The translations under genes were made by a program, and so were the position numbers. A DNA stretch of 63,980 nt, counting the filler, from Fonticula-like sp. SCN 57-25 (lineage: Eukaryota), in NCBI GenBank assembly GCA_001724245.1. It is 4 parts of 4 records of this genome, joined end to end, with 100 filler letters (N's around TTAATTAATTAA, not from the genome) between each part and the next. Parts side by side here need not be neighbours in the genome. Positions count along the whole stretch, not along the records: positions 48,346 to 63,980 come from MEDX01000136.1; 3 more parts are not named here. One strand, written 5' to 3'. The notes beneath the pieces were generated by a model that made no database searches, was not told the DNA's origin, and worked only from the letters and a program-made list of their open reading frames with translations. Positions within the stretch are counted from its first letter, which is position 1; each line of letters starts with the position of its first letter. This document shows positions 21,095 to 60,804 of the stretch, piece after piece.

Positions 21095-21537
21095 GTTGGG
21101 CAAAGTGCCTAAACACAACAAAACCAAAGGTTAGTCCCGATATATCGATGATGCCCGACACAGAGCACGCAAACACCCCTCCCCGCGCCGCGGATGGCGG
21201 CCACGGCGATGGATGGATGGGATGCAGCCATCCCGCAATCCATCCAGCTCCAAATCCGCCGCAGCCTCCATCCGCATCCGCCAACGCCTCAATCCACCGC
21301 ATCATCCACTCCTCTGCCCGGTCCACGACTGCGAGAGAAGCAGGCGCCGCGCCCTACCCACATATCCCCACTCCCACGACGCCGAGACGTGCCTGCGACT
21401 CGAGCTGAGGTCAAAAGAGAGAGGGTGAGCAATCCAGCAGCGTTCGATCCAAAATCCAACCCCAGATTTTGGGAAATCCGGGGTGGATTCAATTTCATCG
21501 CCCACGCTGTCAGCAAATTCATATTGGACGTTGGCTC

Positions 21538-58289: not shown

Positions 58290-59172
58290 TTACTGCAAAG
58301 AGAGAAAGAGTGAGCATTCAAGTAGGAAAGAATTGAGATCAAGCGCACCTTCTTGGCCTTGCCGGTGGTAACCTTGGCCTTCTCGGTACCGCGGACCTTC
58401 TTGGTGCGGTTCTTGCGCTCCTTGCGCTGCTTGCGGGACGTCACCTCGCGCGTGAAGAGACCGATCTGTGATGAGCAGCGTGTTAATGATGGGTTTGCAG
58501 CCGAAATCAATAAAGCGTACGCGGCCGAGGCGGTACTTGGGCTCGAACTTCTTGAGGTCCTCAATGGTGTCGTAGATGAGGCCGAAACCAGTGCTGCGGC
58601 CACCACCGAACTTGCCGGCGAAACCGAAGACGACGACGTTCTCCTTGGGGGCCTTGTAGAGGGCGGCGAGCTTCTCGCGAACCTCATCCTTCGAGAGGTT
58701 GGCCTTGCCGGGGTGGATCACATCAACAACCTAAATTGCAAAAAAACATGCAAAAAAATGAAGAGGCAAAGGAGACGCGAGTGTGAGCAAACCGATCGGG
58801 CGGCACATCGACTCCAAAACGCACAAACTGCTTGCGCTTGAGCAGGCGGTTCGTGATGAACTTACGCGTACGAAGCGTGGCGGTCGCCGAATCAGCCTAC
58901 AAGACAATGGCAAAGCGGATGTCAGCCACAGAACACAGGCATGCGATAGAGCGGGATGCGTCGAGAGGATGCCGCCACCGTGGGCTGCAGACGGCGAGGA
59001 TGGATGCTCCACTTCAGCATCGGGATGACGGATGCGGCATCCACAGTCTATCCCGGCCGAGGCATCATCAAACATCCGCGCGCCCTGCGGCCTCCGGGCA
59101 TCCTCCTCGTTGCATAGCCTAAACCCCGGCCACCCATGCCCAAAACCCAAGCATTGCTGCTGGACGCACCAT
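58290..59172 (-). CDS. RPS24: 40S ribosomal protein eS24
   Basis: [62 protein letters not shown]-only first exon; stop-only last coding exon. Confidence 0.96.
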
Positions 59173-59357
59173 CCTGTCCGTCTGGGATGCGCCTAAGTGA
59201 GAGAGGCCGTCCCAACAGAGGTCACGGCACAAGAAGGATCACAATCTCGATCGCGATCGATCCAAAATTTTCGATCCGGATCGTTTCATTGTACATCACG
59301 GTCCCATCTGCCACTGCGATCCCTCTCTTTACATCGCCGTCGGGGTAACACGCAGGC
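59173..59357. promoter_or_regulatory. RPS24/RPL3 bidirectional promoter
   Basis: 185 nt between divergent ATGs; outward-facing CTCTCT pyrimidine tracts; GATC-rich core containing TCGATCCAAAAT (59257-59268). Confidence 0.7.
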
Positions 59358-60804
59358 ATGGTACGTGCAGGGAAAGGGCATGCTGGACTGTGGGGATGTG
59401 CCAAGTGCGTCGGATGCACCAGGAGATGCGCATGCCGTTTGGATGATGCCTAGATGCTCGCGGTTCCTGATTCTTATGGAGGATGGGTATTGTGCGATGC
59501 GATGGCGCATCCCTGTGCATCCGACCGCTTTGGCGCATCCTCGCAGTGTCCCAGTGGGCATCCATCGCTTTTGTGCAGTTGTCTGATGTGTGTGTGTCTT
59601 TGTTTCATAGTCTCACCGCAAGTACGAGGCCCCGCGCCACGGTTCTCTTGGCTTCAAGCCGCGCAAGCGCGCTGCCCGCCATCGCGGCCGCGTCAAGTCG
59701 TTCCCCCGTGACGACAAGACCAAGCCTTGCCACCTTACCGCTTTCCTCGGTTACAAGGCCGGTATGACTCACATTGTCCGCGATCTTGAGCGCCCTGGCT
59801 CCAAGATGCACAAGAAGGAGATTGTTGAGGCCGTCACCATCATCGAGACCCCGCCGATGACCGCCGTCGGTGTTGTCGGCTACGTCGAGACCCCCCGCGG
59901 TCTCCGTTCGCTCACCACCGTCTGGGCTGAGCACCTCAGCGATGAGGTCCGCCGCCGCTTCTACAAGAACTGGTACAACAGCAAGAAGAAGGCCTTCACC
60001 AAGTACGCCCAGAAGTACACCAAGGACAAGAAGTCGATCGACCGCGAGCTCGAGCGCATCCGCAAGTACTGCACGGTCGTCCGCCTCATCGCCCACACCC
60101 AGATCCGCAAGGCCAAGGGTGTTGGACAGAAGAAGGCCCACATTGCCGAGCTCCAGATCAACGGTGGCTCTGTCGCCGACAAGGTCAAGTTCGCCGTCGA
60201 CCGCTTCGAGAAGGACATCCTTGTCTCGGAGGTCGTCTCCCAGGACGAGCTCATTGACATCATCGGTGTCACCAAGGGTCACGGTTACGAGGGTGTGACC
60301 AAGCGTTGGGGCACGAGCAAGCTCCCGCGCAAGACTCACCGTGGTCTCCGCAAGGTTGCTTGCATTGGTGCGTGGCACCCGGCCCGCGTCAGCTTCACGG
60401 TTGCCCGCGCTGGTCAGGACGGTTACCACCACCGCACTGACGTCAACAAGAAGGTCTACCGCGTCGGCCAGGCCATCCACACCGTTGACGGCAAGGTTAT
60501 CAAGAACAACGCGTCGACTGAGCACGACCTCACCGACAAGAGCATCACCCCTCTCGGTGGCTTCCCCCACTATGGTGTTGTCGACCAGGACTTCATCATG
60601 ATCAAGGGCTCGTGCGTCGGTGTCAAGAAGCGCGTCCTCACCATCCGCCGCTCGCTCCGCACTCACTCCAAGCGCTGGGCTTCGGAGAAGGTCAGCCTCA
60701 AGTTCATCGACACCTCGTCCAAGTTCGGCCACGGCCGCTTCCAGACTGCCGAGGAGAAGAAGAGCTTCATGGGTGCCCTCAAGAAGGACAAGATCGATGC
60801 CTAA
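59358..60804 (+). CDS. RPL3: 60S ribosomal protein uL3
   Basis: [52 protein letters not shown]. Intron 59361-59610. Confidence 0.98.

Follow-up and report, generated by a model that had tools for sequence, protein, structure and literature searches.

Oriented GGATG/CATCC word arrays in the first introns of ribosomal protein genes of Fonticula-like sp. SCN 57-25 as candidate DNA sites phased to the gene start

Do the nested inverted repeats in the first intron of the RPS24 gene of Fonticula-like sp. SCN 57-25 (GenBank assembly GCA_001724245.1) form an RNA hairpin of this one gene, or do they belong to something larger? The intron lies on the minus strand at 58897..59169 of a 63,980-nucleotide stretch of DNA assembled from four parts of this genome (the window, to which all positions refer), and a preliminary description of the sequence had singled out its pairing GGATG and CATCC words. 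The rewiring of regulons is classically studied on ribosomal protein (RP) genes, and motifs that mark them are known from yeasts, animals, and plants. The element proved to be regulon-wide and not the hairpin of one gene. A probability of roughly 55% is given here to the reading, drawn from sequence, that the arrays are oriented DNA binding sites phased to the first nucleosomes, with the hairpins mostly a by-product.

The coordinates of the 273-nt RPS24 intron and its GT..AG boundaries (GTGCGT...TAG) were confirmed, and the downstream exon matches the Pfam family S24e. The intron begins at 59169, directly 3′ of the start codon (59172-59170). Its portrayal as following an ATG-only exon is true of the coding part alone, because exon 1 (59170..59206, minus strand, with a predicted start site) also carries a 5′ untranslated region (5′UTR). 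Read in the direction of the pre-mRNA, a block of three GGATG words (59038..59103; CATCC at 59038, 59073, and 59099 on the plus strand) is followed by a block of seven CATCC words (58917..59034; plus-strand GGATG at 58917, 58954, 58967, 58998, 59002, 59023, and 59030). The plus strand, which is the nontranscribed direction for RPS24, accordingly carries seven GGATG and then three CATCC, in keeping with the earlier remark that GATG words dominate one half and CATC words the other. The two orientations meet at the innermost pair (59030..59042), where GGATG at 59030-59034 and CATCC at 59038-59042 pair perfectly. This switch lies 133 nt past the 5′ splice site and ∼170 to 185 nt from the inferred start, varying with the start rule. 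The 12-bp outer stem between 58962..58973 and 59097..59109 is present with one bulge and pairs on either strand. A third proposed pairing, 59021-59029 with 59046-59055, has both arms but needs a bulge as well as a G-U pair available on the plus strand only. Against the 10 words of the intron, 5,000 dinucleotide shuffles averaged 1.68 and never exceeded 7. Although 149 words occur across the 64-kb window, at least five per 300 nt were found only at RPS16, RPS24, and RPL3. The repeats are nonrandom and common to these genes, as first described.

The RNA hairpin itself fared less well. The folding comparison proposed for both strands gave the whole RPS24 intron a z-score of −0.01 in the sense direction, with 96 of 200 shuffles equally stable, and −1.88 in the antisense direction; with exon 1 included, the z-score was +0.47. 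On the transcribed strand, the whole intron therefore shows the folding outcome that the preliminary description had itself set as a refutation. A core chosen post hoc (58950-59115) reached −2.50 sense and −3.16 antisense, or −1.08 and −1.99 with the words held fixed. The transcribed strand is no stronger than its opposite in either the whole intron or the core, which speaks against a gene-specific RPS24 hairpin and leaves the hairpin reading for this gene weak. The nesting is owed largely to one word that reverses its orientation at a constant distance from where the gene begins.

Pattern searches of the organism's own assembly (9.5 Mb, incomplete) identified 145 matches to the order GGATG-GGATG-CATCC and 44 to the outward order; the first 100 of the 145 were listed, and later contigs were reached by further searches. 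Clusters of at least seven words per 300 nt, counted in loci L001-L053 and L121-L173, numbered 45, of which 42 were distinct. Thirty-seven of the 42 were at cytosolic RP genes, including RACK1, and the other five were at EF1A, a PP1-like gene, an RRM gene, a Sm-like gene, and one unnamed gene. Names were mostly assigned using Pfam, while RPS16, RPL24, RPL26, RPL28, RPL35, RPL37, RPL41, RACK1, PP1, and the Sm-like and Stm1-like genes were named from reading of translations. At least five words were present in intron 1 of 40 of the 44 annotated RP genes, a share that is overstated because most of those genes were found via the pattern. Six RP genes were found independently of it; RPL8 and RPL15 carried arrays, and RPS28, RPS31, RPL19, and RPL30, whose introns are A/T-richer, did not. 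Array introns held 30.5 words per kb. The one exact word was counted 355 times, against 65 expected. A pyrimidine was preferred before GGATG and a G or C after it (mostly YGGATGS). The words were absent from the NHP2-like, MRT4-like, and two mitochondrial RP genes examined.

The proxy for each transcription start was a pyrimidine tract, which resembles the TCT/TOP start known for RP genes in animals, and from this proxy word orientation was found to alternate with distance. Between −20 and +40 there were 34 CATCC versus 0 GGATG; from +80 to +180, 122 GGATG versus 13 CATCC; from +180 to +280, 121 CATCC versus 31 GGATG; from +300 to +360, 18 GGATG versus 5 CATCC; and from +360 to +440, 21 CATCC versus 1 GGATG. 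Near the start, the 44 genes together showed 38 CATCC versus 3 GGATG. To the left of the first flip, 39 introns contained 140 GGATG versus 3 CATCC, and to the right 141 CATCC versus 18 GGATG; at fixed intron positions, the polarity was 98 versus 7 and 84 versus 12. The first flip lay 181 ± 19 nt from the start proxy and 127 ± 25 nt from the splice site (n = 37). Its position had a slope of 0.00 against intron length without RACK1, and of −0.80 ± 0.15 against exon 1 length (n = 37; −0.51 ± 0.24 without RACK1). A second flip followed 168 to 199 nt beyond the first in seven of eight long introns (median, 175).

Genes with long first exons separate the two possible anchors. In RACK1 (exon 1 of 156 nt), the flip falls 30 nt inside the intron. 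EF1A (exon 1 of 165 nt) was first examined after the orientation profile was built, and its intron opens with five CATCC words that lack a GGATG partner upstream, with GGATG from +299, as start anchoring predicts given the long first exon. Anchoring to the start gave the correct orientation for five of six EF1A words and six of six RACK1 words, versus one of six in each gene when anchored to the splice site; for RPS3, the two tied at 8 of 10. No additional long-exon test case came from 20 loci in which CATCC words come after a splice site. Other arrays also have few or no partners: GGATG blocks without a downstream counterpart were found in RPL35 (word order CGGGGG), RPL31 (CCGGGG), and the Stm1-like gene (GGATG only). 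The intron of RPL30 has no words, and a six-word array lies 130 to 265 bp upstream of its start; this array is 90 to 200 bp beyond the stop of the previous gene and could therefore be transcribed or not. Across 29 array introns, folding was strand symmetric, with a mean z-score of −2.02 sense versus −2.13 antisense (Wilcoxon P = 0.56).

When a word occurs in two orientations that are exact reverse complements, it can be read in one of two ways, as double-stranded DNA or through base pairing. The unpartnered arrays, the anchoring to the start, the strand-symmetric folding, and a repeat close to nucleosome length together favor DNA sites. GGATG would then be the site of a putative sequence-specific DNA-binding protein that marks RP and other growth genes. 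The sites would be placed just 3′ of the start, and their distance from the start would dictate which way they face: CATCC from about −20 to +60, GGATG at +80 to +180, CATCC at +180 to +290, GGATG at +300 to +360, and CATCC further on. Flips ∼175 bp apart suggest a factor that, whether bound on the nucleosome or in the linker, always faces the same way with respect to the dyad. Such a factor would position or loosen the first nucleosomes and so allow strong transcription, and the long first intron would provide free sequence to house its sites. Since inward-facing sites are reverse complements, the pre-mRNA can form nested stems as a by-product, and a few genes, such as RPL3, may have refined these into a real RNA rod; that gene suggests that DNA and RNA roles can coexist. 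Only tentatively can this be extended to a lineage-specific "nucleosome-phase code," in which one factor would read 5-bp sites that alternate in orientation with a period of ∼175 bp across the first pair of nucleosomes in almost every growth gene, long first introns would exist to carry the code, and hairpins of the RPL3 type would have been co-opted.

Several observations weigh against the DNA-site reading. The starts are proxies only, and the rule that assigns them was revised after its first version took far-upstream tracts (RPP2 and RPL10). The standard deviation of the flip position was 34 under the first rule, giving no edge over the splice site, and 18.6 under the revised one. When RACK1 is left out, start and splice site give the same spread (18.8 each), and start anchoring therefore rests mostly on the two long-exon genes. 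A weak word-spacing signal at 10.25 to 10.5 bp (P = 0.004 to 0.009 at those periods), which would favor DNA sites, was lost on correction across all periods (P = 0.37). Searches of the incomplete assembly for an ETS domain (PF00178) returned no match, leaving no candidate factor, and a TEA domain search was equally without a match, as was its search control. The locus in contig C54 (L163, 1450-2000), where a long leader with ∼8 CATCC and then three GGATG precedes a low-complexity open reading frame (ORF) with no family match (Atlas), is off the RP-gene phase. The remaining adverse points are signs of RNA pairing. RPL3 intron 1, with z-scores of −4.20 sense and −2.94 antisense, became clearly sense biased when its words were held (−6.66 versus −3.10). 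In a near-identical strain, two stem substitutions keep the RPL3 pairs as G-U, which is weak evidence from one contig at a depth of ∼4. With G-U allowed, the flanks of own-gene word pairs extended further than those of permuted genes (2.09 versus 1.79; P = 0.0003), an excess that arm composition does not explain. In a duplex test, the RPS24 arms came top among 29 on each of the two strands.

Most of these signs count in favor of the main alternative, in which the words would act as exchangeable RNA helix modules, any GGAUG pairing with any CAUCC, and place a stem ∼180 nt from the 5′ end of each transcript. A shared protein reading this stem would coordinate RP pre-mRNAs in their splicing, pausing, or stability. 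In one variant, an alternative stem with the CAUCC of exon 1 would mask the 5′ splice site. RPS24 has a 16-nt arm (58988..59003) that is 88% complementary to 59169-59184 (exon 1 plus the G of the 5′ splice site), a possible alternative pairing that is unused in the predicted fold. A public run (X2) near-identical to the genome has two differences within 58978-59184, and coverage from a public RNA run (X7) fell on coding parts only and was mostly diverged sequence of other organisms. Yeast RP introns are reported to be structured and autoregulated (PMC12350175; PMC12311795). In an alignment test, complementarity within a gene modestly exceeded that between genes (mean z-score of 1.15 to 1.29, with 7 or 8 of 29 introns above 2). 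The excess was equal with G-U or A-C allowed, and masking the words, which also cuts power, removed most of it (0.26 to 0.29). Outer words had no mirror register (14 of 100 versus 15.5%). Flank extension with A-C allowed was 1.42 versus 1.30 (P = 0.04), and with Watson-Crick pairs only the P value was 0.046; another possible source of the G-U excess is the decay of inverted duplications through C>T and A>G changes that favor one strand. The RPS24 arms were not top in the alignment test (z-score of −1.4 in G-U mode), which superseded a duplex arm-swap test that used a fixed split and mis-centered RPL3 (mean z-scores of −0.43 sense and −0.57 antisense). The sense folding of RPS24, the lack of strand bias in 29 introns, the unpartnered arrays of EF1A, RPL35, RPL31, and the Stm1-like gene, and an orientation that tracks the start and not the splice site all run counter to RNA modules. 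Some RNA pairing is nevertheless real, and because of the RPL3 rod and the G-U excess, an RNA role is retained as an unlikely but serious alternative.

Classical yeast-type zipper stems, which would join the 5′ splice site and the branch point, are improbable. A stem of this geometry was predicted in 12 of 19 introns versus 4.4 in plain shuffles, and RPS24 has one of 7 bp. With the words kept, however, the count was 13 of 23 versus 11.3 expected (17 of 40 introns were skipped for a length of >310 or absence of the branch motif), and the RPS24 stem arose likewise in 60% of shuffles. The axis is also independent of intron length, and long introns form two local modules rather than one enclosing stem. 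It is similarly hard to credit that the arrays have no function and arose where DNA is heavily transcribed, through mutation by GGAT-unit slippage and template switching. The commonest word spacing is that of overlapping tandem copies 4 nt apart (35 pairs), and complementarity is strand symmetric, as slippage and switching would have it, but one exact word is enriched, with polarity and position alike in dozens of unrelated genes and with the absences noted above. RP introns are frequent hosts of small nucleolar RNAs, and the RPS24 intron has a TGATGA...CTGA pair on its sense strand, but a small RNA encoded by the intron, or a mobile element common to the set, is very improbable, given that Rfam returned no window match at the gathering threshold and none at an E value of ≤1 in six loci including RPS24, that the RPS24 intron has no second copy in its own genome, and that the word is all that the introns share.

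Searches for relatives based on RPL3 identified 67 loci (the best 74% identical), and none of the 20 that were scanned with their flanking DNA had more than four words per 300 nt; no look-alike stretch was found among the other genomes scanned. The fungal RP-regulon promoter motifs Rap1, Tbf1/Cbf1, and Homol-D precede the start and number one to three copies. The array resembles them as a single short motif on most RP genes of one lineage, and differs from them in being mainly transcribed, multicopy, and phase oriented.

Two systems offer the nearest parallels. The Localized Tandem Sequence Motif (LTSM) of vertebrate RP first introns is reported as an ATC-N7-ATC pair at +52 to +82 in one orientation, acting as a distance-dependent DNA enhancer bound by NonO/SFPQ (PMC3262029). 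Like the array, it consists of short words containing ATC, lies in first introns of RP and translation genes whose start falls in a pyrimidine tract, and has its orientation and position tied to the start, which for the array is a proxy. Unlike LTSM, the array has ∼9 copies of a 5-mer over 400 bp in alternating orientation. The 10-bp spacing that would match the 7-bp spacer of LTSM is the rarest short one among the words (1 pair) and low among ATC pairs (5). The words are concentrated at −20 to +40 and +80 to +260 from the start proxy, with +40 to +80 nearly empty (7 GGATG and 4 CATCC, the start being a proxy). As three defining features fail, the array is not LTSM, though it may act alike. 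For the ETS factor ELF2, the portion of the report available describes oriented nucleosome binding downstream of starts, with RP genes as top targets (10.1101/2024.05.24.595749). A GGA-core word apparently oriented to the start and putatively to the nucleosome, highly expressed genes, and RP genes are common to both, and by analogy this may be the closest model of a mode of action. ELF2 differs in its GGAA core and in binding as a head-to-tail dimer no more than 20 bp from the start; an alternating multinucleosome array is not described in that portion, and no ETS domain was found in the present, incomplete assembly.

As far as the accessible text of four papers goes, Saccharomyces RP introns are likewise long and able to form stems (PMC12350175, PMC2536676, PMC12311795, PMC13232506). 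Those stems are gene specific and tied to the splice site and branch point, whereas here one word is shared, the axis has a slope of ∼0 against intron length, and the sense strand is no more stable (RPS24 and the 29-intron set, RPL3 excepted). Nothing alike was found in the parts seen of a review and two motif papers (PMC8047918, PMC3575287, PMC4921865), and the word itself had no match in the portions of the two motif papers (PMC3575287, PMC4921865). Among the papers listed by literature searches, which were mostly open access, none reported arrays of this kind.

The remaining features of the window surround these arrays. Exon 1 of RPS24 (minus strand) has a pyrimidine (TCT/TOP-like) tract at ∼59206-59197, a CATCC word at 59189-59185, and a GGATG word enclosing the start codon (59174-59170), and a motif rule places the likely branch point of the intron, CTGAC, at 58921..58925. 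RPL3 begins ∼190 bp from RPS24 on the plus strand, and the probable divergent promoter common to both genes (59207..59320) is rich in GATC palindromes. RPL3 intron 1 (59361..59610, plus strand) has four GGATG and then four CATCC and forms the strongest true rod in the set. The 5′UTR intron of RPS16 (21109..21392, minus strand; GC-AG; gene named by reading the sequence) has five GGATG and then four CATCC, with GC as its apparent 5′ splice site at 21392.

Some further observations concern the genome as a whole. RP genes cluster (L028, C306; L007, C28; and 58290-60804 of the window): RPL1, RPL5, and RPL14 lie inside 4 kb, and RPL5/RPL14, RPS28/RPP2, and RPS24/RPL3 are divergent pairs. A weaker pattern, CATCC near the start with GGATG 100 to 200 nt on, was seen in an H2A.Z-like gene, two CCT subunit genes, a PP2A scaffold gene, and two unnamed genes (L196, L176, L198, L195, L174, L175), using loose search patterns with which chance is possible for some. 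A degenerate A/T-rich repeat was present in at least four copies (L040, 1300-1750; L041, 1100-1950; L170; contigs C85 and C249), which in C249 are arranged in tandem. Every copy has a single CATCC and two GGATG words, and Rfam returned no match for L040 and L041. Recurrent words in upstream promoters (L011, L012, L019, L026, L032, L155, L156, and L157; a raw listing without a control count) were TCACGTGA, TGCAAACT, the palindromes TGATCATCA/GATGGTCATC, AATCTGGGG/TGGATT, and GACCAATC. A tRNA-like stretch was noted upstream of the array-less RPS31 (L121, ∼2110-2185), and an eEF2-like gene (L046, C542) lies in A/T-rich sequence that differs from the remaining assembly and is possibly from a second organism. 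Profile searches of the incomplete assembly for S6e, S8e, S3Ae, and L2 found none, and KOW, S2, and L10 searches gave no further cytosolic RP gene. The RPL3 protein scored best against animal chains (637 bits), then fungal (625) and plant (614), which does not place the organism.

The arrays provide a dense and readily legible regulon signature in a poorly sampled protist lineage. They also carry a caution, in that nested intronic inverted repeats can be arrays of DNA sites and not RNA structures. To our knowledge, oriented factor binding over successive nucleosomes has hitherto been seen mainly by in vitro selection and in one ETS structure. If the phasing is true, the RP genes of this organism would represent a natural, genome-wide case of such binding, and it would account for their long first introns.
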